Positions 6,051-49,607 of a DNA stretch of 64,000 nt are shown here, piece after piece. The DNA lies in NCBI GenBank assembly GCA_029551285.1, contig JAKPFT010000081.1, positions 18,620-82,619 on the forward strand, in the 5' to 3' direction. The stretch's first letter is position 1; each line of letters begins with the position of its first letter. The notes below the pieces were generated by a model. It made no database searches, had not been told where the DNA came from, and saw only the letters and a program-made list of their open reading frames with translations. A program made the position numbers and the translations under genes. Origin of the DNA: a bacterium. GTDB lineage: Bacteria; Ratteibacteria; UBA8468; B48-G9; DSTR01.

Positions 6051-6062
6051 AAGATTTTTCAG

Positions 6063-6145: not shown

Positions 6146-6218
6146 TTTCTTTTTGGCTACCCTAAAACTATCCCTTAACTGAGCGGGGAAGTTTAACTAC
6201 TTACTGATAAACCGGCCT

Positions 6219-26017: not shown

Positions 26018-26851
26018 ATGAAAAAAAGTATCAACATCGGAGCCGTACCTGCGGCCTGGCCCCTGAAGGAAAAACTCCAGGCCATCAAGAAGGCCGGGTT
26101 TGAAGCGGTGGAACTCAACCTGGCCGAAGAAGGTTTTCTCAGTCTAACCAGCAGTCAGGAAGAAATTCTGGCTGTCCGCCAGCAGGTTAACCAGGCGGGA
26201 CTGGAAATAGCCAGTTTGCTGGCCGGTGGGTTCTGGCGGCATCCGCTGACCAGTTCTGACCAGACTACCCGCAGTCAGGGGGAGAACCTGCTGAAGAAAG
26301 CCATAGAAATCTGTTCCTGGCTGGGTACCGAGGCGCTCCTGGTCGTGCCAGGCGTGGTCGGCCCCGAGCCTCAAACAGGACTGGTAACCGGCTACGATGA
26401 AGCCTACCAGCGCAGTCAGGAATGCCTTCGCCGGGCCGCGGCCTTCGCAGAGAAATCCCGGGTTTACCTGTGCGTGGAAAATGTCTGGAACCGTTTCCTG
26501 TTAAGCCCGCTGGAGATGAAACGTTATGTGGAAGAAATAGGTTCTCCCTATGTCCAGGTCTATTTTGATGTCGGCAATGTGTTGTTGTTTGGTTTCCCGG
26601 AAATGTGGATCAGAATTCTGGGTAAACTTATCCGGCGCATTCACCTGAAGGATTTCAAGACCGGCGTAGGTACCGGATACGGTTTCTGCACACTTCTGGA
26701 GGGCGATGTCAACTGGCCGGAAGTACTGAAAGCCCTTCAAGAAGTCGGTTATGACAGTTATCTGACCGCGGAAGTTGGACCGTACCGGTACTATCCGGAG
26801 ACAGTGCTGCTGCACACTTCTACCAGTATGGACCGAATCATGGGCAGGTGA
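26018..26851 (+). CDS. sugar phosphate isomerase/epimerase (xylose isomerase-like TIM barrel)
   Basis: AP-endonuclease 2 / TIM-barrel family pattern (VELNLAE..., YLCVENVWN, HLKDF). Confidence 0.7.
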   Translation: MKKSINIGAVPAAWPLKEKLQAIKKAGFEAVELNLAEEGFLSLTSSQEEILAVRQQVNQAGLEIASLLAGGFWRHPLTSSDQTTRSQGENLLKKAIEICSWLGTEALLVVPGVVGPEPQTGLVTGYDEAYQRSQECLRRAAAFAEKSRVYLCVENVWNRFLLSPLEMKRYVEEIGSPYVQVYFDVGNVLLFGFPEMWIRILGKLIRRIHLKDFKTGVGTGYGFCTLLEGDVNWPEVLKALQEVGYDSYLTAEVGPYRYYPETVLLHTSTSMDRIMGR

Positions 26852-26858
26852 GACCTGT

Positions 26859-33465: not shown

Positions 33466-34026
33466 ATGAAGCCGGGGAAAATCTTTGTCTTGTCCGCTCC
33501 TTCCGGGACCGGCAAGACCACCATTGCCCGAAGACTCGTCCAGGAAATACCCGGTTTAGCCCTGAGTGTCTCCCTGACTACCAGAAAGCCGCGACCCGGG
33601 GAAAAAAACGGCCAGGACTACTTTTTTGTTTCCCGGAGGCATTTTCAAAAACTGATTCAGGAAAAGGCTCTGGTTGAATGGGCCTGCGTCTTCGGGAATT
33701 ATTACGGGACACTCCGCTCTTTCGTGGAGGAAAACCTCAGGGCCGGACGGCCGGTGTTACTTAACATTGACACCCGGGGAGGGCTGCAAATTAAAAAAAG
33801 GTTCCCCGGGGCCAGATTAATTGGCTTGCTACCTCCTTCTCTGCGGGAACAGGAAAGGCGCCTGCGCCAGCGAGGAGACCTTGCGGAAGAAGAAATCAGA
33901 AAGAGGCTGGAGGAAGCCCGAAGAGAAAGAAAAACACTGCTGCAGTTTTACCAGGTGAGGTTCGTTAACCGTGACCTGCAAAGTACTGTTGAGAAGATAA
34001 AAAAGTTTATCCTTAGGCATGCCTGA
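33466..34026 (+). CDS. gmk: guanylate kinase
   Basis: P-loop SAPSGTGKTT and the GMP-binding region are typical of Gmk. 186 aa. Confidence 0.85.
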   Translation: MKPGKIFVLSAPSGTGKTTIARRLVQEIPGLALSVSLTTRKPRPGEKNGQDYFFVSRRHFQKLIQEKALVEWACVFGNYYGTLRSFVEENLRAGRPVLLNIDTRGGLQIKKRFPGARLIGLLPPSLREQERRLRQRGDLAEEEIRKRLEEARRERKTLLQFYQVRFVNRDLQSTVEKIKKFILRHA

Positions 34027-34849
34027 ACTACCCCGGGTCAAGCTTGGCCGGTTAGAAGTTTCCAGGTTGCTCATCGGCGGCAACCCATTTTCCGGTATTT
34101 CCCATCAGCATCCTGGACTGGACCAGGAACTGCTGGATTACTACACCACAGAAAACATCAAAAAAGCCTTAGCGCGAGCCCAGCAATCAGGCATTAATGC
34201 CTTTGTCGCCAGGGCCGACCGTCACTTCTTGCGGGTGCTCCGGGAGTGTCACCAGGAAGGAAGAATAAGCATGCACTGGGTCGCCCAGACAGTTCCAGAA
34301 CTGGCTGATTTCCGAAACGGCCTGGCCGCAGCCCTTTCCTGCCCTTACCGGCCAGCCGCCATTTACTTCCACGGTGGTCTGGCTGACAGCCTCTGGCAGG
34401 AAAAAAAGCTGCTCCAGCTTCAAGAATTTCTCCAAATGATCAAAGATACAGGTGTCCTCTGCGGGCTGGCGGCTCACCTTCCGGAAACGATTGAAGAAGC
34501 GGAAAGTCAAGACTGGCCGGTTGATTTCTATCTGACCTGCTTTTATAACCCGGCGGGCCGGGGTAAGAAAGGTCTCACCGTACTGACGGGTTCGGCCGGA
34601 GAGTACTTTGACGAGAAAGACCCCTTCCGCATGGCTCAGGCCATCCAGGCTGTTAAAAAACCCTGTCTGGCGTATAAAGTTCTGGCCGCAGGGCGAAAGT
34701 CTGTTACTCCCGGGCTGCTGAAAGAAGCCTTCCGCTTCGCTTACGCCAGTATCAAACCCGGCGATGCTGTAGTGGTGGGCGTCTTTCAAAAATACCGGGA
34801 CCAGATTGCGGAAGATGTTTCCCTTGTCCGGGAGATTCTTTCTTCCTGA
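34019..34849 (+). CDS. hypothetical protein (possible TIM-barrel fold)
   Basis: 276-aa ORF that overlaps the gmk stop by 8 nt (operon coupling). No confidently recognised motif. Confidence 0.4.
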   Translation: MPELPRVKLGRLEVSRLLIGGNPFSGISHQHPGLDQELLDYYTTENIKKALARAQQSGINAFVARADRHFLRVLRECHQEGRISMHWVAQTVPELADFRNGLAAALSCPYRPAAIYFHGGLADSLWQEKKLLQLQEFLQMIKDTGVLCGLAAHLPETIEEAESQDWPVDFYLTCFYNPAGRGKKGLTVLTGSAGEYFDEKDPFRMAQAIQAVKKPCLAYKVLAAGRKSVTPGLLKEAFRFAYASIKPGDAVVVGVFQKYRDQIAEDVSLVREILSS

Positions 34850-36092: not shown

Positions 36093-36446
36093 TCAGAGAT
36101 ATCCCTTTAACTTTTCCTCCAGCATCCTTTCCGGCAGCGCTCCCACCATCTGGTCAATTTTCTGGCCGTTTTTGAAGACTACCAGTGTGGGAATGGAAAG
36201 AATACCAAAATCGTTAGCCAGGCTGTTTTCCTCGTCCACATTCACTTTTCCGAATACCACGGTTCCAGCCAGCTTCTTAGCCAGAGATTCAATCACCGGA
36301 GCCAGCATCCGGCACGGACCACACCAGGGCGCCCAGAAGTCCACCACCAATAAAGGATACTTTTTCACAGCTTCCGGAAAATTTTCTCCGGTCAGGTGCA
36401 GGGGATAATCCGGACTTTCTTCAGAATTTACTTTTTTCTCTTCCAT
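36093..36446 (-). CDS. trxA: thioredoxin
   Basis: WAPWCGPCR active site. Thioredoxin fold length plus a short N-terminal extension. Confidence 0.85.
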   Translation of the reverse strand: MEEKKVNSEESPDYPLHLTGENFPEAVKKYPLLVVDFWAPWCGPCRMLAPVIESLAKKLAGTVVFGKVNVDEENSLANDFGILSIPTLVVFKNGQKIDQMVGALPERMLEEKLKGYL

Positions 36447-36467
36447 CTTCCTCCCTGTCTGTTTTTT

Positions 36468-38093
36468 CTAAAAGTACATGTTCTTCGCCATGAGGTAGTC
36501 AAAATCTGCCTCCAGTTCATTCGTCCGGACATGTTCTACCCGAGCAGCGATTTCCTCAGCCGTTTGCCGGCACTCCTGACAGAGTAACATCTCCCGGGCA
36601 CCCTCCAGAGCGCCGTTACCAATCTTGACCACAAGTTGTTCCGGTACCTGCGGAATAAGACCGATGGCCATGGCGTTGGCCGTGTTGATAAAGTTACCAA
36701 AACCTCCGGAGAGATAAACATGCTTCAGGTCTTCTACCGCGGCCGGATAGTAGTGGAGAAGTATCTCCACCCCGGTTTTCATGGCCGACTTGGAGGTAAC
36801 CAGTTGAAAAATGTCCTGCTGGGTAATTTTCAGTTCTCCGTTGAGATAAAAATCATTTTCAATCCTGGCCTGCCGGTTCATCAAGCCGTGCTTTAACATC
36901 TCCGCCAGCAAATCAATCAGACCTGACCCGCAGACTCCCACCGGGTACTTGCTGCCGATGGTGCTGTAAACAACCTTGCCGTTAAGGAGCCGTATTTCCT
37001 TAATCGCTCCCTCAATGGCACCGGTGCCACAACTGACGCTGTTGCCTTCAAAGGCGCCGCCAGCCGCACAGGAAGCCGCCACCAGCCGGTCTCTGTTACC
37101 CAGGACCAGTTCTCCGTTGGTCCCGATATCAATCATCAGCGATAATTCTTCGCTCCGGTACATTTCCGAAGCCAGAATGTCTGCCAGAATATCCGCTCCG
37201 ACATGGCCCCCGATTAAGGCCGCACCGTAAATGGCTCCCTTCGGATTTACGGCCAGTCCCACCTCCGCCGGGGCTACCGTAATGGCTTCCGGGTGGACTG
37301 GCTCAAAAGGTTTCGTGCCTAAAGAAGAAACATCCAGCCCGAGAAAAATGTTGCGCATGGTGGAATTACCCACCACCACCGTATCATAAATGTACCTTTC
37401 CAGCGGTTGACCGGCCTCTGCCGACAGTTCCCGCAGACCGCTGTTGATACCTTCCACCACCACCTTCTGCAGCTGTTTCAGCCGGTGTTCTCGTTTTTCT
37501 AAGGGCAGGTACCGGTGCGTCTCCCGGTCAATCAGGGTGTATTCAATGCGAGAAATCACATCGTTACCGTAAGAAATCTGTGGGTTGGTTCTGGCCATGG
37601 TCGCCAGGATATTTCCGGTTTCCAGGTCAACCAGGTCAAACACCAGCGTCGTGGTGCCAATGTCCACGGCCAGGCCGTAAATTTTTCCGAAATAATCATC
37701 AACCTTTTTCCCCTGGTAGAAAACCTGCTGCCCACTTCTGGTGACAGCCGGAGCCATGGGTATTTTCCGTTCCAGTCCATACTTGAGAATTTCGTAGGTG
37801 CCGAACTCCTTGATGAAAACCACGATATCCGAATCATCCTTAATCACTCTGGCCTGGCAGGCTAACCGCTCCTTATCGTTCAGAGCAAACTTCTTTTCCG
37901 CTGCGGTCAGCTCGTTGAGGTTGTCCTCGCCTTTTTCTACCCGGACCACACATTTGCCGCAGACACCATGGCCGCCGCATTCAGCGTGAATTTCCAGCCC
38001 GTTATCTCTGATATAGTCAAGAATGGACAAACCCGGATGCACGCTGAACCCGGACTTGCCTTTCTTAAACTGCGGGAAAAAGATGTGTCCCAT
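36468..38093 (-). CDS. RACo-like ASKHA ATPase with N-terminal 2Fe-2S ferredoxin domain (corrinoid reductive-activase family, DUF4445)
   Basis: N-terminal plant-type ferredoxin Cys motif (CGGHGVCGKCVV...C). C-terminal actin/hexokinase-like ATPase body (DIGTTTLVFDLVD, IDIGTNGELVL). Confidence 0.7.
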   Translation of the reverse strand: MGHIFFPQFKKGKSGFSVHPGLSILDYIRDNGLEIHAECGGHGVCGKCVVRVEKGEDNLNELTAAEKKFALNDKERLACQARVIKDDSDIVVFIKEFGTYEILKYGLERKIPMAPAVTRSGQQVFYQGKKVDDYFGKIYGLAVDIGTTTLVFDLVDLETGNILATMARTNPQISYGNDVISRIEYTLIDRETHRYLPLEKREHRLKQLQKVVVEGINSGLRELSAEAGQPLERYIYDTVVVGNSTMRNIFLGLDVSSLGTKPFEPVHPEAITVAPAEVGLAVNPKGAIYGAALIGGHVGADILADILASEMYRSEELSLMIDIGTNGELVLGNRDRLVAASCAAGGAFEGNSVSCGTGAIEGAIKEIRLLNGKVVYSTIGSKYPVGVCGSGLIDLLAEMLKHGLMNRQARIENDFYLNGELKITQQDIFQLVTSKSAMKTGVEILLHYYPAAVEDLKHVYLSGGFGNFINTANAMAIGLIPQVPEQLVVKIGNGALEGAREMLLCQECRQTAEEIAARVEHVRTNELEADFDYLMAKNMYF

Positions 38094-38146
38094 ACTGTTC
38101 TCCTCAGAGTTCTTATTATAGGTTGTGGGCCGCCACCTGACAAACC

Positions 38147-38485
38147 TTAATGGTCACAGATATTTTCTCCGGTGACCAGGGTGCCGTTAAGGTAAGCCAT
38201 TACCAGAGCCTCCGGCACTTCTTCCGGCGCGCCGGTAATCACCTTCAGGCCGCACTCATCAAAAAAAGCACGCGCTCGCTGGCCCAGACCGCCGACAAGA
38301 ACTACCTGCACACCCTGTTTCTTCAACCACCGCGGAAAAAGACCCGGCGCATGCTCCGGCGCTTCCAGTACTTCCTGGCCGGTAATCTTCTTTTCCTCTT
38401 CGTCTACCTCAAAAATCGCAAACTGCTCGCAGTGTCCAAAATGCGCACTCAACCTTCCCCTGACCACAGGTATAGCCACCTTCAT
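38147..38485 (-). CDS. NifX/NifB-C-terminal-like (dinitrogenase FeMo-cofactor biosynthesis domain) protein
   Basis: MKVAIPV...FGHCEQFAIFEVDEE...VQVVLVGGLGQRA is the family pattern. 112 aa. Confidence 0.7.
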   Translation of the reverse strand: MKVAIPVVRGRLSAHFGHCEQFAIFEVDEEEKKITGQEVLEAPEHAPGLFPRWLKKQGVQVVLVGGLGQRARAFFDECGLKVITGAPEEVPEALVMAYLNGTLVTGENICDH

Positions 38486-38531
38486 CGCTCCCCCTTCTCC
38501 CGGATAGGAACTTCTCTCCTTTTTTCTGTTC

Positions 38532-38837
38532 TTATGGTTTCAACTTCTTAATTTCTTCTTCCACTTCTCTGGCTCCCCGGGCATAAAACTTTTCTTCATC
38601 AGGCGCCAGTTCCCGAAGAAGCCGCAGGAACTCGCCGGCGTGAACCCGTTCTTCGTCAGCGATGTCCTTAAGTACTTCCTGAGTTAGTTTATCATCGGTT
38701 GACTCGGCCAGTTGCAGATAAAGTTGAATTGCCTCGTACTCCGCAGCGACCATAAACCGAATTGCCCGCACCAGTTCTGCCTGGCTTAGTTTCCTTTCCG
38801 CCTTCAGCCCGGAAAAGGCTCTTCCGAAATCAGGCAT
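38532..38837 (-). CDS. ferritin-like/rubrerythrin-like diiron-carboxylate small protein
   Basis: ExxE...EERVHAGEF pairs (AAEYEAIQLY; ADEERVHAGEF) fit ferritin-like metal ligands. 101 aa. Confidence 0.45.
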   Translation of the reverse strand: MPDFGRAFSGLKAERKLSQAELVRAIRFMVAAEYEAIQLYLQLAESTDDKLTQEVLKDIADEERVHAGEFLRLLRELAPDEEKFYARGAREVEEEIKKLKP

Positions 38838-38870
38838 GTTCCCTCCTTATTCTGGACTGCCGGTTCCCGG

Positions 38871-39236
38871 TTACTTCTGCCCGAAATGACCGGGAACATT
38901 GGGACCGGAAGAATTTGAAAACTCTCCGGCTTTGAACTGTTCCACGGCCTGTCGCACCGTTCCCCTCACTCCAGTCACCACCTTGATGCCAGCCGCCTGT
39001 AATGTGCGAAAGGCATTTGGGCCGCAGTTACCTGTGAGCACATACTTGACTTCCTGCCCGGAGACCAGTTGAGCCGCCTGAATACCAGCACCTCCACCAA
39101 GCTCTGCACTGGTATTTTCTACGGCTTCATAGTCCAGAGAATCTGTATCCACAATCAAAAACCATCTGCAGCGGCCAAACCGCTGGTCCACCTGCTCGTC
39201 AAGACTTTTCCCGGTTGCCGTCACGGCAATTTTCAT
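38871..39236 (-). CDS. NifX/NifB-C-terminal-like protein (second copy)
   Basis: MKIAVTATGKSLD..VDQRFGRCRWFLIVDTD...KYVLTGNCGPNA. 121 aa. Confidence 0.7.
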   Translation of the reverse strand: MKIAVTATGKSLDEQVDQRFGRCRWFLIVDTDSLDYEAVENTSAELGGGAGIQAAQLVSGQEVKYVLTGNCGPNAFRTLQAAGIKVVTGVRGTVRQAVEQFKAGEFSNSSGPNVPGHFGQK

Positions 39237-41070
39237 GCTCCCTCCTTTCCTCTAAGAGATGGTTCAGTTTCGCCCAAATTTCCCTGATTGCCCGGGCCGC
39301 GGCGCCGTCACCGTATTCCACCACAATCCGACCGGCCTGAAGCGCCTGGTTAACTTCTAAATCAAAAGGAATGCTGCCCAGCACCGGAGAGTTCATCTGA
39401 CCAGCCAGAGTTTTAATTTCTTCCAACTGCCTCCTGTTGAGGTCCGCCTTGTTAATAACCACCAGAGCAGGTACCCGAAAATGTTTGGTCAGCTCCAGTA
39501 TCCGTTTAAGGTCATGAATACCTGAAACCGTGGGCTCTGTCACCACCAGGACCAGGTCTGCGCCAGAAACCGAGGCAATTACCGGACAGCCAGTACCCGG
39601 TGGACCATCCCCGAGAATGCGTCCCAGAGACAGTTCCTCAGCCAGCCGGGCGGCCCGGTGGCGCACCTGAGTAACCAGACGACCAGAGTTTTCCTGAGCG
39701 ATTCCAAGCCGCGCATGAACCATCAACCCGTGAGCTGTGTCGGAAACAAACCAGTTTCCACTGACCTCTTCCTCCAGACTGATGGCACCTACCGGACACA
39801 CCAGAGAGCACAGACCACATCCTTCACAGAAAGAGGCCTTCACCCGATAGGTTTTAGCCACGACCTCATTGGCGGGTCCATCCAGACCAATGGCGCCAAA
39901 GTGACACTGCTGCGCGCAACGACCGCAACCAGCACATTTTGCCGCGTCAATTATCGCCTTCCTGCTTCCCGAAAAAGGATGTCTTTCCAGAACCTCCGGT
40001 TGCAGGAGAAGATGAAGATCAGGAGCGTCAACATCGTTATCGGCCAGGACGGTTTCGCGGGAAAGGGCTGATAAAGAGGCCACCAGAGTTGTTTTGCCGG
40101 TACCGCCTTTACCGCTGATTACTGAAATTTCGCGATAGCCTTTTGCCTTTCCCGGCACAAAGGAAAACTTTTTCCTTTTCTTAGATGGTAATTCCTCAAT
40201 CCGGGGCATCTCAGGGAGCTTTCTTTTCCGCAGGAGCTTGATTTCCTCAAAAATTTTCAGCAAATCTGCTGCAAGTTCCTTATGATGTTCAATCAAAATC
40301 TTACCCCGGGCATAGGTCTCGGCATATTCCCTCCGGAAAGGTATCCGGCCAATAATGGGCATGCCTGTTTCTTCGGAATACCTGGTGATCAACCTATCCT
40401 GGCCATCGGATCTATTGACTACAATGCCGGTGGAAACTCCCAGGCTCACCGTCATGGCGGCTGCCAGACTCAGGTCGTTGAGTCCAAACGGCGTCGGTTC
40501 CGTTACCAGCACCGCAACATCAGCATGCTGAACGGCTCTGACCACCGGACAGGCAGTTCCCGGTGAAGCATCAAGAATATTGATTGCCCCGGCCATAATC
40601 TGCTTCTTGACCGCTTCCACGACGATGGGCGCCAGGGTCTCCCCAATATTCAACAGCCCATCGGCGAAGAAAAACGGCTTGTGGTCTGCAGCCACCCTGA
40701 CCCTGCCAATGACCACCTTTTCTTCGTGCAGGGCCTTCTGGGCACACACGCAGGAACAGACACCGCAGGCGTGGCAGAGTTCGTTGAAAATGAGCAGTTT
40801 TTTCTTGACGACGGCGATGGCGTTGTAGTGACAGGCCCGGGCACATTGGCCGCAGGCAATACACCGCCGCTGGTCCCAACGAGGCTTCAAGACGGCAACA
40901 GGTTTTTCCTCAGTGTAACGCGGTTTTACAAAGAGATGGCCGTTGGGCTCCTCCACATCACAGTCCAGAAGGCGGACCGAATGGTTCTTTCTAACCAGGG
41001 CATACGCCAGGTTGACGGCAAACGTTGTCTTACCGGTGCCACCTTTACCGCTGGCCACAGCAATGGTCAT
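39199..41070 (-). CDS. tandem MinD/ParA-type P-loop ATPase fused to 4Fe-4S ferredoxin domains (duplicated module)
   Basis: Two deviant Walker A boxes (VASGKGGTGKTT; ISGKGGTGKTT). Each is followed by a CxxCxxC...C ferredoxin-like cluster (CIACGQCARAC, CHACGVCSCVC; CAGCGRCAQQC, CEGCGLCSLVC). Start chosen at MTIAVAS; the ORF runs to 41127. Confidence 0.75.
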   Translation of the reverse strand: MTIAVASGKGGTGKTTFAVNLAYALVRKNHSVRLLDCDVEEPNGHLFVKPRYTEEKPVAVLKPRWDQRRCIACGQCARACHYNAIAVVKKKLLIFNELCHACGVCSCVCAQKALHEEKVVIGRVRVAADHKPFFFADGLLNIGETLAPIVVEAVKKQIMAGAINILDASPGTACPVVRAVQHADVAVLVTEPTPFGLNDLSLAAAMTVSLGVSTGIVVNRSDGQDRLITRYSEETGMPIIGRIPFRREYAETYARGKILIEHHKELAADLLKIFEEIKLLRKRKLPEMPRIEELPSKKRKKFSFVPGKAKGYREISVISGKGGTGKTTLVASLSALSRETVLADNDVDAPDLHLLLQPEVLERHPFSGSRKAIIDAAKCAGCGRCAQQCHFGAIGLDGPANEVVAKTYRVKASFCEGCGLCSLVCPVGAISLEEEVSGNWFVSDTAHGLMVHARLGIAQENSGRLVTQVRHRAARLAEELSLGRILGDGPPGTGCPVIASVSGADLVLVVTEPTVSGIHDLKRILELTKHFRVPALVVINKADLNRRQLEEIKTLAGQMNSPVLGSIPFDLEVNQALQAGRIVVEYGDGAAARAIREIWAKLNHLLEERREHENCRDGNREKS

Positions 41071-41249
41071 GCTTATTTCCTCCACGGGCAGCCGGCAACC
41101 GGTTTCTCCGTCATCTGCGGGAAACAACTGAATGGATACCTCACCTTCGCCACTTATGTGGCCACAGTTTCCTCTCTTTCTAACAGAGCCGTTGCCTGCT
41201 GGTCTAACCTTTTCTTCCGTGACTTATTTTCTCTCTGTTGATGCGCTCT

Positions 41250-41453
41250 TCACCGTTCTCTGACCATAGGCGTCCCACAACCGGGGCACTTGACCGAATA
41301 ACACGGAACACCGCGTTGATGGGGAATCTTCCGACCGCAATTGGGACAGACACAGTTACCACCTGGTCCGGCTCCAAAGCCACCCATCCGGCCAGGGCCT
41401 CGCCCCATTCCTGGCCCTCTTCCTGAAGGTCCGGTACCATCTCCTCTGGGCAT
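41250..41453 (-). CDS. DUF5320 family small protein
   Basis: MPRGDGTGPSGRGPGMGRGPG N-terminus and C-terminal CPNCG...CPGCG zinc-ribbon-like pairs. 67 aa. Confidence 0.6.
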   Translation of the reverse strand: MPRGDGTGPSGRGPGMGRGPGRMGGFGAGPGGNCVCPNCGRKIPHQRGVPCYSVKCPGCGTPMVRER

Positions 41454-41470: not shown

Positions 41471-42160
41471 TTATGTTCTGTGAATTTCAGTTCCTTCCTT
41501 CACCAGCAGCAGCGGGAAGATAACATCACTGGTGCAGCAGGGAATGACCACCGCCAGAACCATATAAACCAGCACTGCGCCAATCTGGTGTGCCCAATCC
41601 CGCAGTCCGTAGCTTATCAGATAAAGAATGGAGGCCACCGAACTGGTTAAGACATGCAGTGAGTGAGAGAAAATCACACCTTCCTGTTTCTCCAGCGTCC
41701 CCGGTGCCAAAAATCCAATCAAAATCCCGACCACGAGAAAAGGAAGCACAATCTGCGGGTGTTCAACGATGCAGATGTGCAGTTGCATCCTGGCTCCCAG
41801 AAGGACACCGGCCAGGTAAGGAATGAAGATGTCGCTGAGGCCGCAGATACCAATTGAACCCACGATGCCGACGATGACAGCCTTCCAGAAGCGCCGCTCA
41901 TACTGCCAGAACATCGCAGTGGTTGCCATGGCTGAAAAAAGCATGTGCGACGGGTGAAAAACATGGAAAAGATCCCTGGTAAATGGGGCAGGGTCCTGCA
42001 CCTGGACCAGATTGGCGAAGAAACTCAGAACTGCCGCAAACATAAGACCGAGGGTGACACTCAAGACCGAAAACGGCAGGTGGTGGCTCAGTCCCTTCCA
42101 GAGCAGGTTTATCTTTTTCTCCATGGTCTCCTCCCTTTCCTCCTGGCCTGGTTTCTCCAT
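41471..42160 (-). CDS. His-rich integral membrane protein (possible metal transporter or metal-dependent membrane hydrolase)
   Basis: About 6 TM helices. Histidine clusters HVFHPSH, HICIVEH, SHSLHVL. The neighbouring genes are metal-related. Confidence 0.35.
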   Translation of the reverse strand: MEKPGQEEREETMEKKINLLWKGLSHHLPFSVLSVTLGLMFAAVLSFFANLVQVQDPAPFTRDLFHVFHPSHMLFSAMATTAMFWQYERRFWKAVIVGIVGSIGICGLSDIFIPYLAGVLLGARMQLHICIVEHPQIVLPFLVVGILIGFLAPGTLEKQEGVIFSHSLHVLTSSVASILYLISYGLRDWAHQIGAVLVYMVLAVVIPCCTSDVIFPLLLVKEGTEIHRT

Positions 42161-44710: not shown

Positions 44711-45100
44711 TCAGCCCTCCTGCTGTTTTTTCTTAGAGATGACTGCATCCAGGTCAGCCAGCCGCTGCTGGATTTCCTTCATCTCCTGTTCCATGGCTGA
44801 GAGCTGCTGCCTGAGAAAGGCTGCTTCGGCGTCCGGAGTGAGCTCAGCCCCGGGGACGAAACCCGGGTAGCGGCCATACCAGTAGCCACCCCAGGCAGGC
44901 AGTCCGACCCGGGCCCGATACCAGCCGGGAAGCCCGGTCGCGTAGTACCAGTGTCGCCAGCCGCGTCCGCCCCAGCGAGGCCAGAAACGGCCGTAAGTGC
45001 CCCATCCGGGATAACCGGTGAGCGGAAGAGCACAAAAACCGCGACCTCCTCCAGTCATCGGCCCCAGACCCAGCGGTCCAGTTCCATCAAATCCTGGCAT
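44711..45100 (-). CDS. DUF5320-like protein with W/Y/G/R-rich low-complexity region and C-terminal coiled coil
   Basis: N-terminus MPGFDGTGPLGLGPMTGGGRG matches 41250..41453. Middle region GYPGWGTYGRFWPRWGGRGWRHWYYATGLPGWYRARVGLPAWGGYWYGRYPG. C-terminus EAAFLRQQLSAMEQEMKEIQQRLADL. Confidence 0.5.
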   Translation of the reverse strand: MPGFDGTGPLGLGPMTGGGRGFCALPLTGYPGWGTYGRFWPRWGGRGWRHWYYATGLPGWYRARVGLPAWGGYWYGRYPGFVPGAELTPDAEAAFLRQQLSAMEQEMKEIQQRLADLDAVISKKKQQEG

Positions 45101-45106
45101 ACTGTT

Positions 45107-45598
45107 TCACCTCCTTTCTGCTTGTTTCTCAGCATTTTTACACTGCTGGCACTTTCCGTAAAACTGAATTAGATGGTCGGTAATCTCAAAATTGTACTTT
45201 TCGCTCAGGCCTTTCTGGGTCGTTTGAAGAAGTTCTTTTTCCTTCTCCAGAAAATCGCTGTAATCTATCACCCGGCCGCACAAAGTGCAGATGAGGTGAT
45301 GATGGTGGCTCTTACCCCCGGAGTGGGCTGCCAGTTCAAAGCGGGCCCGACCATCCCCGAAGTCAAACTTGACCACAATCCCCATTCGCACCAGCAGGTC
45401 TAATGTCCGGTAAACCGTGGTTAACCCGATCTGCGGGTAACGGGCGTGGACCAGAAAGTAAATGTCCTCAGCGCTTAAATGCTCAGGTGTCTGCGTAAGA
45501 ACCTGCAGCACCGCTTCCCGCGGCAGGGTGTAACGGTAGCCGCACCCGTGGAGCCTCTCATACAACCAGGGCGGTCCGGCCATCCAGCGTCTGGGCAT
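45107..45598 (-). CDS. zur: Fur-family transcriptional regulator, probably Zur
   Basis: Winged helix plus HHHxxxC..C and C..C metal sites (SHHHHLICTLCG; CQQC). It lies immediately upstream of znuBCA on the same strand. Confidence 0.8.
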   Translation of the reverse strand: MPRRWMAGPPWLYERLHGCGYRYTLPREAVLQVLTQTPEHLSAEDIYFLVHARYPQIGLTTVYRTLDLLVRMGIVVKFDFGDGRARFELAAHSGGKSHHHHLICTLCGRVIDYSDFLEKEKELLQTTQKGLSEKYNFEITDHLIQFYGKCQQCKNAEKQAERR

Positions 45599-45668
45599 TT
45601 TTTCTCCTTATTGAAAATAGTTTCCATTTTCATTATACCCGGCCAGGTGGCCCCTGTCAAGAGATCGG

Positions 45669-46457
45669 TCAACGCCGTCCGGCGAGCACCGCCAGCAAGG
45701 CGGCCAGACTGTAAAGGGCAACAATAGTCGGACCGGCAGGCAGGTCAAACCTCCAGGAGACAGCCAGGCCAGCGCTGACACAGAAAACCGCCACCAGCAC
45801 CGCTATTAGAGTACTCAGGTGAATCCGCCGCGTCGCCCACAGCCCGGCCATGGGCGGAATTACCAGGGAAGCAAAAACAAAGAGAAGACCGCAACTTCTC
45901 ATCGCCAGGCCAATCAACGCACCCAGAGAAAGATAGAAAATCAGGTCCCAGAAACCGGCCGGCAATCCGAGGCTTAAAGCAAAGTCACGGTCAAAGGTAA
46001 CCGCCACGAACTCCTTCCGGAAGACAATCTGGGAACCCACCACTGCCAGGCTCACCAAACTCAATACCAGCAACTCCGGCGTGCTGATATAAAGGATGTT
46101 ACCTGAAACCAGGTCCAGACCGCGGGCTTCCGCCAGGGGGTTTTTGGCCACCAGCAAAACGGAAGCGGCGGCACACAGAGCATAAATAAACCCCACCGCG
46201 GCTTCTCCGAAACCACGTTGCTGGTGCCAGAGCTGCCAGAAGATTAAGGTAACCACCGTTGTCAGCAGAAAGGCCATCAGAAAACTGGTCTGGCCGAAGA
46301 AAAAACCGATGGCGACCCCTAATGCCGCCACCTCAGAAAGTGCTACCGACAGGAAGACAATCCTTCTCCAGATGACAAAGATGCCCAGATAGGCGCAGGC
46401 TGCGGCGATAATGCTGCCCGCGGTAAGAGCCCTCTGCATGAATGCTTCGCCAAACAT
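45669..46457 (-). CDS. znuB: zinc/manganese ABC transporter permease (ABC-3 family)
   Basis: 8 TM helices in the ABC-3 pattern. Operon with znuC and znuA. Confidence 0.8.
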   Translation of the reverse strand: MFGEAFMQRALTAGSIIAAACAYLGIFVIWRRIVFLSVALSEVAALGVAIGFFFGQTSFLMAFLLTTVVTLIFWQLWHQQRGFGEAAVGFIYALCAAASVLLVAKNPLAEARGLDLVSGNILYISTPELLVLSLVSLAVVGSQIVFRKEFVAVTFDRDFALSLGLPAGFWDLIFYLSLGALIGLAMRSCGLLFVFASLVIPPMAGLWATRRIHLSTLIAVLVAVFCVSAGLAVSWRFDLPAGPTIVALYSLAALLAVLAGRR

Positions 46458-46469
46458 CCTTCCTCCGGT

Positions 46470-47204
46470 TCAGTAAACCAGGATTCCGTTTTTACCGTTT
46501 TTTAGAAATATCTCTGTTTCCAGAACCTGCGAAAGCAAGGCAGCATTCAGCTGGTCTTTGCTGACCACCCGCAGGCCACCGGTCCTCTGAAGAAAAAGAA
46601 AATACTCGGCTTCGTTGATGACTTTAGGCAATTCGTGACTGACCAGGACCACAGTTAAACCCAACTGCTTTCTGGTCTCGGCCACCAGTTGCAGAATTTC
46701 GCGGGAACCCTTCAGGTCCAGGTCGGTGGTGGGTTCGTCCAGCAGTAGCACCTGCGGCTCTGTAGCCAGAGCCCGGGCTAAGAGCACCCGCTGTTTCTGG
46801 CCACCGGAAAGTTCAGAGAAGAGTTTTTCCGAAAGGTGACCCACACCGCACAGCCGGAGACATTTTTCCACGACCGCCCGGTCCTCATGCCGGAAAGGCC
46901 GGCCGAGCCCGGCTAACCTGGTTCTGGCCATAAGAGCAATCTCCCTCACGGTGCAGGGGAATAACTCCTCCACGGCCTTCCTTTGCTGGCAATATCCGAA
47001 AGCCAGCCGGCTATCCCGGTAAAGGTGACCCTTCAGGGGCGGCAGAATTCCCAGGATGGCTTTTAAGATGGTGGTCTTGCCGGAACCGTTAGGTCCGATA
47101 AAACCCCAGTATTGACCCGGATAGATTTTTAAGGAAAGCCCTTTTACCACCGGCTGGCTTCCGTAACCAAGGGCGACATTCTCAAAAACGATAATCGGGT
47201 TCAT
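46470..47204 (-). CDS. znuC: zinc/manganese ABC transporter ATP-binding protein
   Basis: Walker A GPNGSGKTT. LSGGQKQRVLLARAL. LLLDEPTTDLD. Confidence 0.85.
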   Translation of the reverse strand: MNPIIVFENVALGYGSQPVVKGLSLKIYPGQYWGFIGPNGSGKTTILKAILGILPPLKGHLYRDSRLAFGYCQQRKAVEELFPCTVREIALMARTRLAGLGRPFRHEDRAVVEKCLRLCGVGHLSEKLFSELSGGQKQRVLLARALATEPQVLLLDEPTTDLDLKGSREILQLVAETRKQLGLTVVLVSHELPKVINEAEYFLFLQRTGGLRVVSKDQLNAALLSQVLETEIFLKNGKNGILVY

Positions 47205-48115
47205 AATTGTTGTTCTCCGGTGATTAAAGAAACGATTGTTTCCAGAAGGCTGAAGTAATCCCTAACTTCGGGAGTACCTCCCACGGAATTGGGAAAGACA
47301 ACCACCCTGGCCCCGGTCTCCCGGGCCACAAAATCAGCCGCTTTTCTGTTATAAAAGACCTCCTGCAGGATTAGACCAACCTTTTCCTTTTTCATCAACT
47401 CCACGACCCGGGAAAGATGCGCCGGTCCAGGAGGAATACCAGGTTTTGGCTCCAGTTCCGCCACAATTTTCAGGGGAAATCTCCGGCAGAAGTAAGAAAG
47501 ACTGCGGTGGTAACTGACCGCTTTCACTTCGCCCAGTTTTTCCATCTTTTTCTGGCACCAGGCTATCAGCTCATCAATCCTGCGCTCAAATTTCTTCAGA
47601 TTGGCCTGGAAAAAATCACTGTCAGCTGGGCAAATAATACTGAGCCGTTCTGCAATCTGTCTGGCTATTAAGCGGCCATTTTCCGGGTCAAGCCAGTAGT
47701 GGGGATTACCCAGCGGGTGGACATCTCCCATAGAAGCATCAACCCTGGCACCAGAAGGCAGCACCTCTAATTTTTTTATCGGTCCGGAAAGGTCAAGAAA
47801 ACCAGTTTTACCCGTGTTCACCTTTGGATTCCGGGCCGCGTCAATCAGCGAGTAAACCCAGATGTCCAGGTCCAGCCCCACGGCCAGAACCAGGTCTGCC
47901 TTCCTGATTTTCACCACCATAGAGGGTCTGGGCTCCACAAAATGAGGGTCCTGCACCCCGGTAATCAGGGAAACTACCTCCACCCTGTCCCCGCCTATCT
48001 CCCTGGCGATTGAGGCCATGTCAGAAGTGGTGGTGACAACATTTATTTTCTCAGCCGAGGCTAAACCCACACACAGAGCCAGTACCGTCACCAGTAAAGT
48101 TATCCGCTTCATCAT
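47201..48115 (-). CDS. znuA: metal ABC transporter substrate-binding protein (ZnuA/TroA family)
   Basis: Signal peptide, then the TroA-like fold (VVTTTSDMASIAREIGGDRVEV...HPLGNPHYWLDP). Confidence 0.8.
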   Translation of the reverse strand: MMKRITLLVTVLALCVGLASAEKINVVTTTSDMASIAREIGGDRVEVVSLITGVQDPHFVEPRPSMVVKIRKADLVLAVGLDLDIWVYSLIDAARNPKVNTGKTGFLDLSGPIKKLEVLPSGARVDASMGDVHPLGNPHYWLDPENGRLIARQIAERLSIICPADSDFFQANLKKFERRIDELIAWCQKKMEKLGEVKAVSYHRSLSYFCRRFPLKIVAELEPKPGIPPGPAHLSRVVELMKKEKVGLILQEVFYNRKAADFVARETGARVVVFPNSVGGTPEVRDYFSLLETIVSLITGEQQL

Positions 48116-48181
48116 CCCTCCTTATCTGACTATTGTTTCTGTCAATGGTTTTGCAACTCCTTATCGCCTTTCCTCCTCCAC

Positions 48182-48434
48182 TGTCAGAAAAGGAAGGGAA
48201 TAACTGGCGAACGAATTGCGAAGGCACAGTTACAAGACAAGACGAAAAGCGGATGCGCTCGGTAAGCGGACCGGACAATTCCATCCGGGACGCAATACCT
48301 TACTCGGCGGTGTTTGAGCTCGCCCCCGGGCGAGCGAGTTCGCCGAGCAACCGATTTCGGCGTAGTCCTTGTCTGTGCCGGAGCATTCTGAGTGAGCCAG
48401 TTTGTTCCCTTTCTTTTCATTCCTCTTTTATTCC
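48182..48434. repeat. copy 1 of tandemly duplicated ~253-nt structured element (candidate ncRNA/riboswitch-like leader)
   Basis: Copy 1 is near-identical to copy 2 at both ends. The middle diverges, but the local hairpins are preserved (ccgga-N8-tccgg; gctcgcc-ccc-ggcgagc). Confidence 0.6.
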
Positions 48435-48481
48435 TTCTTTGGTTCTGCCTGTCCTTATCTCTCTCCCTATCCTTCCCAGTG

Positions 48482-48734
48482 TGTCAAAAAAGGAAGGGAA
48501 TAACTGGCGAACGATTTGCGAAGGCACAGTTACAAGACAAGATGAAAAGCGGATGCGTTCGGTAAGCGGCCCGGATAAGTCTAACCGGGACGCAATACCT
48601 TACTCGGCGGTGTCTGAATTCGCCACCTGGCGAATGAGTTCGACGAGCGACCGATTTCGGCGTAGTCCTTGTCTGTGCCGGAGCACCTTGAGTGAGCCAG
48701 TTTGTTCCCTTTCTTTTCATTCCTCTTTTATTCC
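48482..48734. repeat. copy 2 of tandemly duplicated ~253-nt structured element
   Basis: Period is 300 nt. Hairpins cccgg-N10-ccggg and attcgcc-acct-ggcgaat occupy the same positions as the copy-1 hairpins but use different stem sequence, i.e. compensatory changes. Confidence 0.6.
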
Positions 48735-49607
48735 TTTTTTGACACTATCCTTTTCTGTTATTGCTCCTAATCCCCGGCAAACCTCAAGGAGCGCTTCCTT
48801 CAGATATCCGTATTTTCCGCCGAACACGGCCTTACACTGTTCTATGGAAGATGCTCCTTCGTAAACCTTGCAGGCAAAAGCCGTGCAGGTTGGCTCTCCG
48901 CAGGCCCGGCAGTTGGTCCGGGGAAGACGTTTCAAAATCTCCAGGGCCGGCGGCCTCTGGCGCAAGGCGTCCGAAGGTTGAATGGTTGCCCGCTGCTGCC
49001 AGACGCGATTTACCTGGTAGCGAATCATCTCCAGAACCCGCCAGGCATCTACAATCTCATCAGCCCTGGCGACGGTAATCCGTCGCGGAGAGAGAGAAAT
49101 CATCCGGTAGCCGTCCATAAATGTCAGCACCGGAGCGCTTTTTATGTAGGACGCCGTTTCCATAACCGCGTTCAGATAAGGAAAAACCTCAGCCATATCT
49201 CCGGTAATGTGGGCGATGAGCCGGATCCGGGTCTCATCGGCCACGCACGGCGCCAGCACCATGATTGCTGCCCGGCCAAAAACATCTTCAGAGAAAATTG
49301 GCGGTTCCTCGTCAGGGACAGGTCTCTCAGTGGGACGATATTCTACCCATCCGGAACAGGTGAGGTCTCTTTTTTCTCCAAGAAAATCCCGGCCTTCATC
49401 GTCAACAACTAAGGCTGGCGCCCCTACCAGCCGATACTTAGGTTCTGGCCGGATCACTTCCGCGGCCAGAGCCGCCTGTTCTAAACCCTTCAGCGCCATT
49501 TCAAAGGCCTGTGAATCGGGAAAGGTTGTCAGCCACCGTGTCATAACTGTTTTCCTCAACCCGGCTGTTTTTCCCCGCCGGGAAAGAAAAAACACTCTGC
49601 CAGGCAT
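48717..49607 (-). CDS. protein with C-terminal Fe-S cluster domain (PF04060-like C-x2-C-G-x2-T-C-x4-C...C)
   Basis: CRACGEPTCTAFACKVYEGASSIEQC lies at the C-terminus. N-terminal region of unknown function. The start may be at MTRWL (49544). Confidence 0.5.
   Translation of the reverse strand: MPGRVFFLSRRGKTAGLRKTVMTRWLTTFPDSQAFEMALKGLEQAALAAEVIRPEPKYRLVGAPALVVDDEGRDFLGEKRDLTCSGWVEYRPTERPVPDEEPPIFSEDVFGRAAIMVLAPCVADETRIRLIAHITGDMAEVFPYLNAVMETASYIKSAPVLTFMDGYRMISLSPRRITVARADEIVDAWRVLEMIRYQVNRVWQQRATIQPSDALRQRPPALEILKRLPRTNCRACGEPTCTAFACKVYEGASSIEQCKAVFGGKYGYLKEALLEVCRGLGAITEKDSVKKGIKEE

Follow-up and report, generated by a model that had tools for sequence, protein, structure and literature searches.

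A putative Fur-controlled variant of the orange protein gene cluster on a 64-kb bacterial DNA segment

What use would a bacterium have for a string of co-directional genes that sets a thioredoxin and a RACo-like ATPase beside two NifX-like proteins, a ferritin-like protein and a double MinD-like ATPase with ferredoxin motifs? The question is posed by a 64,000-nucleotide stretch of contig JAKPFT010000081.1 (assembly GCA_029551285.1, positions 18,620 to 82,619; hereafter the window), from a bacterium placed in Ratteibacteria, several of whose proteins have Omnitrophota-like closest relatives. An initial annotation had marked seven minus-strand genes at 36093-41453 as one ATP-driven module for electron delivery or Fe-S cofactor handling, with an unknown client, of a kind that recurs in anaerobes with no assigned function. 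All seven open reading frames (ORFs) are present there, and as a general description the functional part was reasonable; the core, however, appears to be a cluster type that already has a name, the orange protein (ORP) complex, rather than an anonymous one. The array is read here as a Fur-controlled variant of the ORP gene cluster of anaerobes. As a whole this reading is favoured with real reservations; that the cluster is of ORP type, that its control is of Fur type and that its boundaries lie where they are drawn below (45660-36057) is held with considerable confidence.

The ORP-type core

The system that supplies the comparison is that of Desulfovibrio vulgaris, with its two operons orp5-orp4-orp3 (DVU2105-2103) and orp7-orp8-orp9 (DVU2107-2109) (PMC6345978, PMC8359166, PMC4641369). 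Orp3 and Orp4 are paralogous ATPases with two [4Fe-4S] motifs each; both co-purify with Orp8, and MrpORP transfers Fe-S clusters to them (PMC6345978). An Orp5 homologue binds [2Fe-2S] (PMC6345978, PMC8359166, PMC4641369). Orp8 is the NifX-like orange protein, whose D. gigas representative binds [S2MoS2CuS2MoS2]3- non-covalently; MrpORP (Orp9) joins an Mrp/NBP35 domain to a NifX-like domain called ‘Di-Nase’ (PMC6345978). Conservation of the cluster in anaerobes is announced in the title of Fievet et al. 2011, as given in PMC6345978, and the role of the complex is still called unclear by its investigators (PMC8359166).

Three observations tie the window to this system: a match to ORP itself, a match to the MrpORP domain, and an ATPase that looks like the tandem pair in fused form. 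Window proteins were assigned with Pfam and NCBIfam profiles, each judged against the cut-off of its family, and the Nitro_FeMo-Co domain was found in two of them (E 1.3e-26 and 5.2e-22). For the larger, of 121 residues, the best match in the PDB is 2WFB, the D. gigas ORP (E 9e-24; 56 of 112 residues identical, or 50%, over the full length); MTH1175 comes next after ORP, as the third-best PDB match (E 7e-18). The smaller, of 112 residues, aligns with positions 265-365 of the MrpORP model NF041136 (E 9e-35; 120.6 bits against a cut-off of 450). It carries HFGHCE near its N-terminus and CDH at its C-terminus, the motifs described for the MrpORP domain (PMC6345978). The two proteins are 27% identical.

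The third line concerns the 624-residue ATPase, in which CbiA and Fer4 dicluster domains are each found twice, together with ParA. Its halves are 33% identical to one another, and each has a MinD-like deviant Walker A P-loop and two CxxCxxCxxxC motifs. Among 35 aligned fused homologues both GKGGTGKTT P-loops are invariant, as are 15 of the 16 ferredoxin cysteines (C386 is nearly so) and one additional cysteine per half, in the sequence GTxCP. Relatives were compared at 83 ATPase loci, namely 80 genome loci and three fetched earlier, two of these being short contigs of the window's own organism; related loci are cited below by L numbers. The counterpart is one ORF at 26 of the 83, and an adjacent gene pair or otherwise not one ORF at the other 57; in Desulfovibrio and Maridesulfovibrio loci from metagenome-assembled genomes (MAGs) it is a split pair at 38-40% identity. 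The protein thus appears to be a fusion of the Orp4/Orp3-type tandem MinD-ferredoxin pair, orthology to D. vulgaris Orp3, Orp4 and Orp5 being argued indirectly, through these MAG loci and the published descriptions. The fused form is also common. Relatives at E up to 1e-20 number 2398 among 8000 candidates scored; the best 120 matches are all about 600-680 residues long at roughly at least 60% identity, and the named ones among these 120 come from MAGs of Kiritimatiellia, Verrucomicrobiota, Lentisphaerota, Victivallales or Planctomycetota. An AlphaFold2 model of the ATPase scores 85.6 for predicted local distance difference (pLDDT) and 0.85 for predicted template modelling (pTM). In a Foldseek search each half of the model matches the folds of MinD, FlhG, ApbC, Cfd1, HypB and NifH; the top 50 are matches to a single half, with neither ArsA nor Get3 among them.

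Set beside the cluster of D. vulgaris Hildenborough (DVU2103-DVU2109), the window agrees in having a small Gly-rich protein, a putative counterpart of Orp5 by position, followed by two MinD-like [4Fe-4S] ATPases, a homologue of Orp8 that shares half its residues with D. gigas ORP, and an Orp9-type Di-Nase domain; both cluster types occur in anaerobes. It differs in that the ATPases are fused into one chain; in that the Di-Nase domain stands alone, without an Mrp/NBP35 P-loop partner in the window; in having no OrpR, sigma-54 promoter or divergent operons, and instead one co-directional array headed by Fur and a Fur box; and in its extras: a canonical DUF5320 protein, a metallo-beta-lactamase (MBL)-fold protein, an ArsP_1/DUF1980 pair, a membrane protein here called TM229, and the EncFtn-like, RACo-like and thioredoxin proteins. 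The resemblance to MrpORP is confined to the Di-Nase domain, and by tblastn a separate Mrp-type ATPase is absent from the window, the matches of an Mrp query being the fused ATPase itself. Window searches by tblastn with representatives of Mrp/ParA, ARMT1, radical SAM, NifU_N and sigma-54 activator proteins, and of DUF134, VIT1, CGGC, methyltransferase and disulfide reductase, likewise returned nothing beyond the fused ATPase.

Extent and control of the array

The interval first marked turns out to be the downstream two-thirds of a co-directional array of about 9.6 kb on the minus strand, from 45660 to 36057. Six further co-directional genes, separated by gaps of at most 21 bp or overlapping, lie upstream of it, up to fur. 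Read as transcribed, the array runs Fur, DUF5320, MBL, ArsP_1/DUF1980, TM229, a 67-residue protein (Cys67) and the fused ATPase, then the ORP-like NifX, half-ferritin, MrpORP-type NifX, RACo-like and thioredoxin genes. The features, in that order, are as follows.

45632..45660, minus strand: array promoter of sigma-70 type, TTGACA, 17 nt, TATAAT (12/12 to consensus)
45610..45627: palindromic Fur box ATGGAAACTATTTTCAAT, after the -10 hexamer and before the ribosome-binding site
45107..45598, minus strand: Fur-family regulator, 163 residues
44711..45100, minus strand: canonical DUF5320 protein, 129 residues
43921..44748, minus strand: MBL-fold protein, 275 residues
42877..43899, minus strand: ArsP_1-family permease, 340 residues
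42170..42886, minus strand: DUF1980/TIGR03943 putative permease subunit; likely start M71, overlapping the stop of the ArsP_1 gene; ORF to 43096
41471..42124, minus strand: TM229, seven-helix membrane protein, 217 residues from M13; ORF to 42160
41250..41453, minus strand: Cys67, small protein in the orp5 position, 67 residues
39199..41073, minus strand: fused Orp4/Orp3-type MinD-ferredoxin ATPase, 624 residues from ATG; the ORF extends to a TTG at 41127
38871..39236, minus strand: orange-protein (Orp8-type) NifX-like protein, 121 residues
38532..38837, minus strand: small EncFtn/EncB-like half-ferritin, 101 residues
38147..38485, minus strand: stand-alone NifX-like protein of the MrpORP Di-Nase type, 112 residues
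38115..38143, minus strand: internal promoter candidate of sigma-70 type, TTGTCA, 17 nt, TATAAT (11/12 to consensus)
36468..38093, minus strand: RACo-like ASKHA ATPase with N-terminal [2Fe-2S] ferredoxin domain, 541 residues
36846..36863: second Fur-box-like site, within the RACo-like gene, 23.4 bits
36093..36446, minus strand: thioredoxin with WCGPC, 117 residues, last gene of the array

Just after trxA, at 36069-36057, stands a terminator-like hairpin, the sole intergenic one between 45598 and 36057; the gene after trxA is convergent. The boundaries first proposed therefore cut the unit, leaving out Fur and its box, the true DUF5320 protein, the MBL-fold protein and three membrane-protein genes. 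The description of the seven genes as tightly spaced holds for most gaps; it fails at the 176 bp between the Cys67 and ATPase genes (41074-41249) and at the 53 bp preceding the RACo-like gene, which contain the 11/12 promoter match. Either this long gap or the internal promoter candidate could subdivide the array. A riboswitch or attenuator before the ATPase is not proposed, since an Rfam scan of 35.5-52.5 kb gave no match at E up to 1 and the 176-bp gap folds no better than shuffled sequence (z -1.9).

Six of the domain calls of the initial annotation are upheld by Pfam and NCBIfam (thioredoxin, RACo-like, NifX-like twice, ferritin-like and tandem MinD-ferredoxin), and searches for the domains it had named as diagnostic, DUF4445, Nitro_FeMo-Co and CbiA/Fer4, found RACo, two Nitro_FeMo-Co, two CbiA and two Fer4 dicluster domains. 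The seventh label must be moved. The 67-residue protein had been called DUF5320 and placed after the ATPase; in the direction of transcription its gene precedes that of the ATPase, and it reaches 17.3 bits against the DUF5320 cut-off of 27 (E 0.011), over its residues 1-41 and profile positions 1-39 only. The canonical DUF5320 protein is the product of 44711-45100, outside the interval (PF17253, 60.2 bits against a gathering score of 27), with a Gly-rich N-terminus that has one conserved Cys and a coiled-coil C-terminus; its gene directly follows fur in the window, L013, L034, L073 and L075.

Cys67 itself belongs to a distinct conserved family, in which a DUF5320-like N-terminal motif, MPxGDGTGPxGxGP, is followed by a six-cysteine ribbon. 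It is 62-74% identical in five loci from other phyla, and homologues (54-79%) lie upstream of MinD-ferredoxin genes in L013, L034, L076, L079, L086, L089, L101, L104 and L167. The order small protein, ATPase, ATPase is that of orp5-orp4-orp3 (PMC8359166, PMC4641369). Cys67 occupies the orp5 position and is 24-27% identical to the Desulfovibrio-type proteins found there, sharing their N-terminal DUF5320 motif only; those proteins are themselves DUF5320-like (28.1 bits in L039, which passes; 17.8 bits in L042). A Shine-Dalgarno sequence, AAGGAGG, stands upstream of the Cys67 gene. In the public calls for two metagenome contigs of the same organism, an overlapping 78-residue ORF in another frame (41204-41440, minus strand) is given in its stead; Cys67 is therefore probably absent from many annotations.

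The regulator at the head of the array is a Fur-family protein (PF01475, E 1e-32), for which the Fur model of NCBIfam gives the highest score (137.9 bits; PerR 85.8, Zur 45), all three lying under their equivalog cut-offs. Its promoter, 12/12 to consensus, sits in the 70-bp gap that separates a ZnuB-like gene from fur; its -35 context, TTGACAGGGG, is shared with L167. Scored by a weight matrix built solely from sites at other loci, the window's Fur box reaches 21.1 bits, against a maximum of 19.2 over 50 mononucleotide shuffles of the 64-kb window. In L013, L016, L034, L073, L075 and L082 the same motif precedes fur or DUF5320 genes by 9-17 bp; it overlaps the called start in L063 and L076, and lies upstream of fur in L085. 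In L013, L073 and L075 it precedes DUF5320 as well as fur, and L076 has a perfect copy after fur. In L013, L034, L073, L075 and L076 the box is kept at its position in promoter DNA that is otherwise unrelated or not alignable.

The association of Fur with ORP-type operons is a recurrent one. Fur orthologues at 53-70% identity head such operons in L013, L034, L073, L075, L076, L085, L089, L101 and L167. Five genome loci from four phyla have a Fur 53-64% identical to that of the window:

L075 and L073: Omnitrophota
L034: Planctomycetales
L076: Syntrophales
L013: Spirochaetales

Four of these five operons run Fur, DUF5320, NifX, NifX, sometimes Cys67, MinD-ferredoxin, MinD-ferredoxin; the exception, L076, has no DUF5320 call and one NifX gene.

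The window thus has a Fur domain and, at the promoter of its own gene, a Fur-type palindrome (of the 7-1-7 or 19-bp class); the classical GATAATGA..TTATC form is seen in the boxes of L101 and L167. From this form, and from the first rank of Fur among the NCBIfam models, we infer a Fur-type, iron-sensing regulator. Identity as Zur or PerR was set aside on the same two grounds, the distinction between boxes being drawn with what we take to be the 7-1-7 consensus sequences of B. subtilis Fur, PerR and Zur. The site inside the RACo-like gene (36846-36863), which has the top score in the window, lies about 400 bp upstream of trxA and encodes IENDFY; it may have arisen by chance from the coding sequence, or may act as an internal operator.

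Control by sigma-54 and an OrpR-type activator, the Desulfovibrio arrangement, was rejected: a scan for TGGCAC-N5-TTGCW with up to two mismatches gave 35 matches window-wide against 37 expected and none in the relevant gaps, and there is no enhancer-binding protein in the window. OrpR has been described as confined to delta-proteobacteria, with no mention of another regulator (PMC8359166). Activators of OrpR type, with PAS and sigma-54 domains, adjoin fused ATPases in L001 (a Kiritimatiellae MAG; 5604-6953) and on the contig carrying P0048; contrary to that suggestion, OrpR-like control would then extend beyond the delta-proteobacteria.

Accessory genes and related neighbourhoods

How much of the array belongs together can be judged from its relatives. 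A match to the ORP-like NifX protein was found by tblastn at 66 of the 83 ATPase loci; NifX-like proteins had merged with the ATPase cluster through fusion proteins, and were hence counted in this way. For other families, ORFs within 7 kb of the ATPase at 81 distinct loci were clustered with the window proteins, so that the window is counted as one locus in each cluster to which it contributes a protein. This census is crude, with mechanical ORF calls, single-linkage clustering and many short contigs, so that the following counts are lower bounds.

DUF5320: 28 loci
MBL-fold protein: 23 loci
ARMT1/DUF89: 18 loci
Radical SAM: 15 loci
SAM methyltransferase: 14 loci
PAS/sigma-54 activator (OrpR-like): 13 loci
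NifU_N: 13 loci
DUF134: 13 loci
Zn_ribbon_8: 12 loci
Disulfide reductase: 8 loci
Cys67: 8 loci
CGGC: 7 loci
Fur: 7 loci
Peroxiredoxin: 6 loci

The neighbourhood, then, recurs far above chance and in several phyla, as the initial annotation had supposed for NifX-like, MinD-ferredoxin and DUF5320 genes. Its seven genes are not, however, one conserved module: near the ATPase in the 80 genome loci, a RACo-like gene was found once (32% identical), an EncFtn-like gene once and a thioredoxin gene four times. The RACo-like, thioredoxin and EncFtn-like genes, being so rare there, are lineage-specific additions outside the conserved core.

RACo couples ATP hydrolysis to uphill one-electron transfer. The window's RACo-like protein has the Fer2, Raco_middle and RACo_C_ter domains (PF00111, PF17651, PF14574; E 7.6e-12, 6.9e-46 and 1.8e-65), aligns with Carboxydothermus hydrogenoformans RACo (3ZYY) at 263 bits with the DIGTTT and DIGTNGE motifs in register, and keeps the [2Fe-2S] ligands and ASKHA phosphate motifs of that protein. 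Like RACo, AcsV and RamA it consists of an N-terminal [2Fe-2S] ferredoxin domain, a middle domain and an ASKHA ATPase domain; it differs in length (541 residues against 631, with a shorter region between ferredoxin and middle domains), in having no corrinoid protein or methyltransferase beside its gene, and in the partners of its subfamily, which are half-ferritin, thioredoxin, ORP genes, the ArsP_1/DUF1980 pair and TM229. Against curated cut-offs it reaches 335.3 of 800 bits for AcsV and 122.4 of 500 for RamA. Among the ORFs scanned between 22.9 and 62.6 kb there is no nitrogenase, corrinoid-binding protein or encapsulin, and no corrinoid or methyltransferase client for the RACo-like protein; the initial annotation had been right about nitrogenase and corrinoid proteins. 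Its further remark, that no methyltransferase substrate sits alongside, holds for the adjacent genes, with one weak methyltransferase-related signal farther off, that of a URO-D-like protein (26775-28010; 23.7 bits, cut-off 23.9). As a hidden client this gene was set aside: it lies on the opposite strand at a distance of 8.7 kb, and its likeness to the URO-D-like protein adjacent to RACo in L105 is marginal (E 9e-6 over 123 residues). A URO-D-like gene, of the MtaA-family fold, follows RACo and ARMT1 genes in L104 and L105.

The ferritin-like protein passes the Rubrerythrin cut-off (34 bits) and lies just under two others, the EncFtn-like PF22277 (25.1 of 27) and EncB_fam NF058679 (89.5 of 90); for TIGR04535 it scores 79.7 bits against 125. 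Its best PDB matches are the EncFtn domain of Pyrococcus furiosus (5N5E, 2E0Z) and Myxococcus xanthus EncC. With these cargo proteins, EncB included, it shares a length of about 100 residues, the half-ferritin helix pair and the E...EExxH ferroxidase positions, aligned with those of P. furiosus EncFtn; it differs in lying between two NifX-like genes and in its sub-threshold scores. No encapsulin shell gene is present among the ORFs scanned in the window, nor in L085, and no targeting peptide is evident by eye at the C-terminus (EEEIKKLKP). The thioredoxin is an ordinary one (PF00085, E 5e-32; TIGR01068, 119.5 bits against 96.8; WCGPC active site).

The RACo subfamily, at 47-79% identity, comes mostly from Omnitrophota-like MAGs. 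Its closest member with context is in L085, an Omnitrophica MAG, at 79% identity, in the order Fur, DUF5320, TM229, VIT1, EncFtn-like, RACo-like, thioredoxin, with no MinD or NifX genes. Proteins shared with the window are 60-82% identical (73-82% for the EncFtn-like, RACo-like and thioredoxin proteins), and the two loci share the convergent genes that follow, namely MFS, guanylate kinase, TPR, ABC-2 and alanine racemase. The window may be a backbone of this type to which an ORP cassette, a permease cassette and an MBL gene have been added; equally, L085 may have lost them. Thirty loci of the subfamily, many of them short contigs, include six with MinD-ferredoxin genes, five of which also have NifX and Cys67; ArsP_1 occurs in seven (six with DUF1980), TM229 in five, and two short contigs have the MBL-fold gene only. 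The association of this subfamily with ORP genes is not accidental. In L086 a RACo-like gene lies within a full ORP-type cluster, alongside FeoAB; in L159 EncFtn-like (70%), thioredoxin and RACo-like genes are adjacent, the full-length RACo-like protein being 32% identical; and in L059 an EncFtn-like gene (73%) is inside an ORP cluster.

The ArsP_1 permease (PF03773, E 6e-48) matches the models for SO_0444-type Cu/Zn efflux and for SaoE weakly, far under their cut-offs (68.5 of 300 bits). Its relatives, at 42-46% identity, adjoin the RACo subfamily in seven loci, and besides the window and L167 an ArsP_1 gene lies near the ATPase in one of the 80 genome loci. The DUF1980 protein (TIGR03943, 119.7 bits against 88.8; also PF21537 and PF09323) is constantly paired with it in related loci. 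TM229 is an undescribed membrane-protein family that merits a family description of its own: it comprises 257 clusters with no Pfam domain and no name other than ‘hypothetical’, and aligned members are 50-69% identical across phyla. Its 44 invariant columns include H15, H54, H57, H60, C94, D98, H116, C118, H154, H157, C196, C197 and D200. AlphaFold2 predicts seven helices (pLDDT 92.6, pTM 0.89), and the best structural neighbours, the only clear ones, are prokaryotic TRIC cation channels (Foldseek TM about 0.46-0.50). Judged by this fold and by its invariant residues, TM229 may be supposed to conduct or bind metal. In an ORP-type cluster of L089, the RACo-like gene is immediately followed by a 426-residue ORF (9563-10843) whose N-terminal part resembles TM229 and which also has a SAM-methyltransferase domain; it may be a gene fusion or the product of a missed stop codon. 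The MBL-fold protein (PF00753, E 4e-9) belongs to a family present in five loci of the RACo-subfamily clustering, the window included.

In L167 a Fur-headed operon has its two MinD-ferredoxin genes separated by those for ArsP_1, DUF1980 and TM229, and also holds Cys67, DUF5320, an Mrp-type ATPase, ARMT1, a methyltransferase and an MBL-fold protein. Iron transporters are linked recurrently: VIT1, which holds the equivalent position in L085; FeoAB; and, beside FeoAB in L086 (13275-14546), a cation-efflux (CDF) transporter fused to a Nitro_FeMo-Co domain. The Fe-S scaffold and carrier genes NifU_N and Mrp are linked as well. Every array gene recurs somewhere with ORP genes in varying order, which points to a functional gene network rather than a fixed operon.

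Directly upstream of the array and on the same strand (45669-50795) are a ZnuABC/AztABC-like metal ABC importer, a PF04060 Fe-S protein (296 residues) and a second ArsP_1 permease (395 residues), so that the region from 36 to 51 kb is a metal-homeostasis island; the weight-matrix scan of the window found no Fur-box-like site before the ZnuA-like gene. A 300-bp tandem direct repeat (48182-48741; 1.9 copies, 91% identical) lies between the stop of the PF04060 gene (48717-49607) and the ZnuA/AztC-like gene (47201-48115). It has no Rfam match and no copy in the fetched loci; one unit, as minus-strand RNA, folds better than 100 of 100 shuffles (z -3.0). A regulatory RNA, a duplicated leader and a mobile remnant are candidates. 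Elsewhere in the window, the 276-residue ORF at 34019-34849 (plus strand) has no Pfam match at E up to 0.01, and those at 57062-58417 (451 residues) and 61470-62609 (379 residues), both on the minus strand, have none at E up to 1e-4.

Possible roles and rival accounts

A likely role for the array, put forward tentatively as one that could well prove wrong, is the iron-responsive handling of Fe-S or (hetero)metal-sulfide clusters. We infer it from domain content, ORP homology, the Fur box, the linkage to iron-transport and Fe-S genes, and the published behaviour of ORP, NifX, IssA and RACo proteins. That is, Fur would repress the array until a metal signal drops, and the genes would be expressed once it leaves the operator; if it is a classical holo-Fur repressor, this would occur under iron limitation. 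The fused ATPase would be an ATP-gated, two-lobed SIMIBI switch carrying four [4Fe-4S] clusters, on which two NifX-like carriers dock with labile, non-covalent Fe-S or heterometal-sulfide clusters; small DUF5320-type proteins might serve as adaptors or extra cluster ligands; the membrane proteins might move metal or metal-sulfide species that feed or drain the ATPase-NifX machinery; and the lineage-specific triad of EncFtn-like, RACo-like and thioredoxin proteins might supply or mobilise iron and low-potential reducing equivalents.

Precedent is to be found among NifX-domain proteins. The domain binds anionic Fe-S species non-covalently in NifB, NifX, NafY and IssA; the last of these keeps Fe and S in store as thioferrate, with which it can rebuild [4Fe-4S] ferredoxin (PMC5524996). 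When Methanococcus voltae senses Fe(II) limitation, NifX-like proteins of the IssA clade increase, as do radical SAM proteins with neighbouring locus tags (PMC8516115, PMC9431491). The window's ORP-like protein shares with IssA and MTH1175 the domain (IPR003731), whose expression in archaea is iron-responsive (PMC5524996, PMC8516115); it differs from IssA in having no long Gly-rich cationic tail, and is closer to ORP.

Several considerations weigh against this account. Genes for ferritin-like proteins and VIT1 are usually induced by iron sufficiency, a poor fit to simple repression by Fur, and it is only from the similarity of the box that the way Fur acts and the metal it senses are presumed. 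Co-transcription across 41074-41249 is putative, and the RACo-like and trx genes have a promoter candidate of their own. The fold search with the ATPase model gave no sign of an ArsA-like arrangement of the halves. Several companions that are frequent in relatives, namely the Orp9 Mrp domain, ARMT1/DUF89, radical SAM, NifU_N and a sigma-54 activator, went undetected in the window by tblastn with one query each. As isolated, D. gigas ORP contained a Mo-Cu sulfide cluster rather than an Fe-S one, and the sole reported phenotype of orp down-regulation is a change of cell morphology (PMC6345978, PMC8359166).

Other accounts divide the genes differently. In the model of the initial annotation the seven form one electron-delivery module, and the RACo-like protein activates a client, perhaps a corrinoid or another low-potential metalloprotein, which the MinD-ferredoxin and NifX-like proteins would serve as well. 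The retained [2Fe-2S] ligands and ASKHA motifs would suit this, as would the MinD-ferredoxin genes in six of 30 subfamily loci, the RACo-like gene in the full cluster of L086 and the URO-D-like genes after RACo and ARMT1 in L104 and L105. The model is nonetheless improbable, for the RACo-like gene is near the ATPase in one genome locus in 80, at 32% identity, and in L085 keeps company with thioredoxin in a locus devoid of MinD and NifX genes; its product is far below the AcsV and RamA cut-offs, no B12-binding protein is among the ORFs scanned, and the gene has its own promoter candidate. At the opposite pole is the supposition that nothing couples these parts: a Fur-regulated unit for iron or oxidative stress (Fur, DUF5320, TM229, ferritin-like, RACo-like, thioredoxin) would have received ORP and permease cassettes by insertion. 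The L085 backbone, with VIT1 besides, the same downstream synteny and no ORP genes, speaks for this; the 176-bp gap and the separate promoter candidate agree with it, and a rubrerythrin-like protein with thioredoxin resembles the peroxide-stress sets of anaerobes, peroxiredoxin and disulfide reductase occurring near the ATPase in six and eight loci. Yet all the cassettes recur together in differing order in several phyla (L086, L089, L101, L104, L167), Fur and DUF5320 directly head ORP operons that have no RACo triad, and the L059 cluster holds an EncFtn-like gene; mere juxtaposition is judged unlikely.

Two further alternatives take the ATPase as their point of departure. ArsA-ArsB is a tandem-fused SIMIBI ATPase serving a membrane permease, and by analogy the array might detoxify or export metal or thiometallate: the NifX-like proteins would sequester Cu/Mo (or Zn, Cd) sulfide clusters, and the ATPase would pass them to ArsP_1/DUF1980/TM229 or energise these membrane proteins. 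Both systems have two P-loop halves in one chain and genetic linkage to a permease, which in L167 is immediate, the trio lying between the ATPase genes; the window's ATPase differs in its ferredoxin inserts and in having no sequence or full-length fold match to ArsA, and its permease belongs to ArsP_1, not ArsB, so that coupling would be purely hypothetical. The thiometallate that ORP binds non-covalently (PMC6345978) speaks for export, as do the nearest named relatives of the permease (the SO_0444 Cu/Zn and SaoE efflux models), the cation-efflux::NifX fusion of L086, and the second ArsP_1 gene and Znu/Azt-like importer just upstream. On the other side, the permease falls far short of those families' cut-offs, ArsP_1 is near the ATPase in a single genome locus of 80 besides the window and L167, and regulator and box are of Fur type, not CsoR, ArsR or Zur; export is a doubtful prospect. 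The role proposed for the Desulfovibrio complex, in cell division or positioning, would make the ATPase a spatial regulator whose Fe-S domains sense redox. MinD and FlhG are the best fold and profile matches of each half; orpR inactivation causes morphological defects, and MrpORP is found at the cell pole (PMC8359166, PMC6345978). The neighbourhoods, however, are made up mostly of genes to do with metals or Fe-S clusters (NifU_N, Mrp, radical SAM, Fur, transporters) and not of division genes, and MinC, MinE and FtsZ were not found among the ORFs scanned near the array; for this locus a division role is very unlikely.

The preferred reading, of iron-responsive cluster handling, can be extended to a more specific one, offered as a long shot: ORP-type machinery would be the cytoplasmic half of a Fur-regulated, membrane-coupled path for iron as metal-sulfide species in Omnitrophota-like and related anaerobes. 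ArsP_1/DUF1980 and the TRIC-like His/Cys protein TM229 would carry such species across the membrane, in uptake or release; the two-lobed ATPase would load them onto the NifX-like carriers; and the RACo-like protein would push low-potential electrons into a non-corrinoid centre, be it the di-iron site of the half-ferritin or a carrier-bound cluster. If true, the ORP complex would gain a concrete function, and RACo proteins a second kind of client.

The ORP complex has reportedly been under study since 2011, and the cluster type, named and widespread in anaerobes, is not new. Four things were not found described in the literature examined: an ORP operon headed by Fur and a conserved Fur box, the widespread occurrence of the ATPase in fused form, a linkage of ORP genes to ArsP_1/DUF1980 and the TM229 family, and a RACo-like subfamily with non-corrinoid partners. 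Fe-S cluster trafficking in anaerobes beyond SUF and Mrp is an open question (PMC6345978). Here, Fur and its conserved box would tie ORP-type operons to iron status outside the delta-proteobacteria, and the recurrent linkage to membrane proteins, interleaved with the ATPase genes in one genome, is a testable handle. Should the reading fail, the locus would be one more member of a widespread, named cluster; should it be confirmed, work on ORP would be redirected from cell division towards metal-sulfur trafficking.

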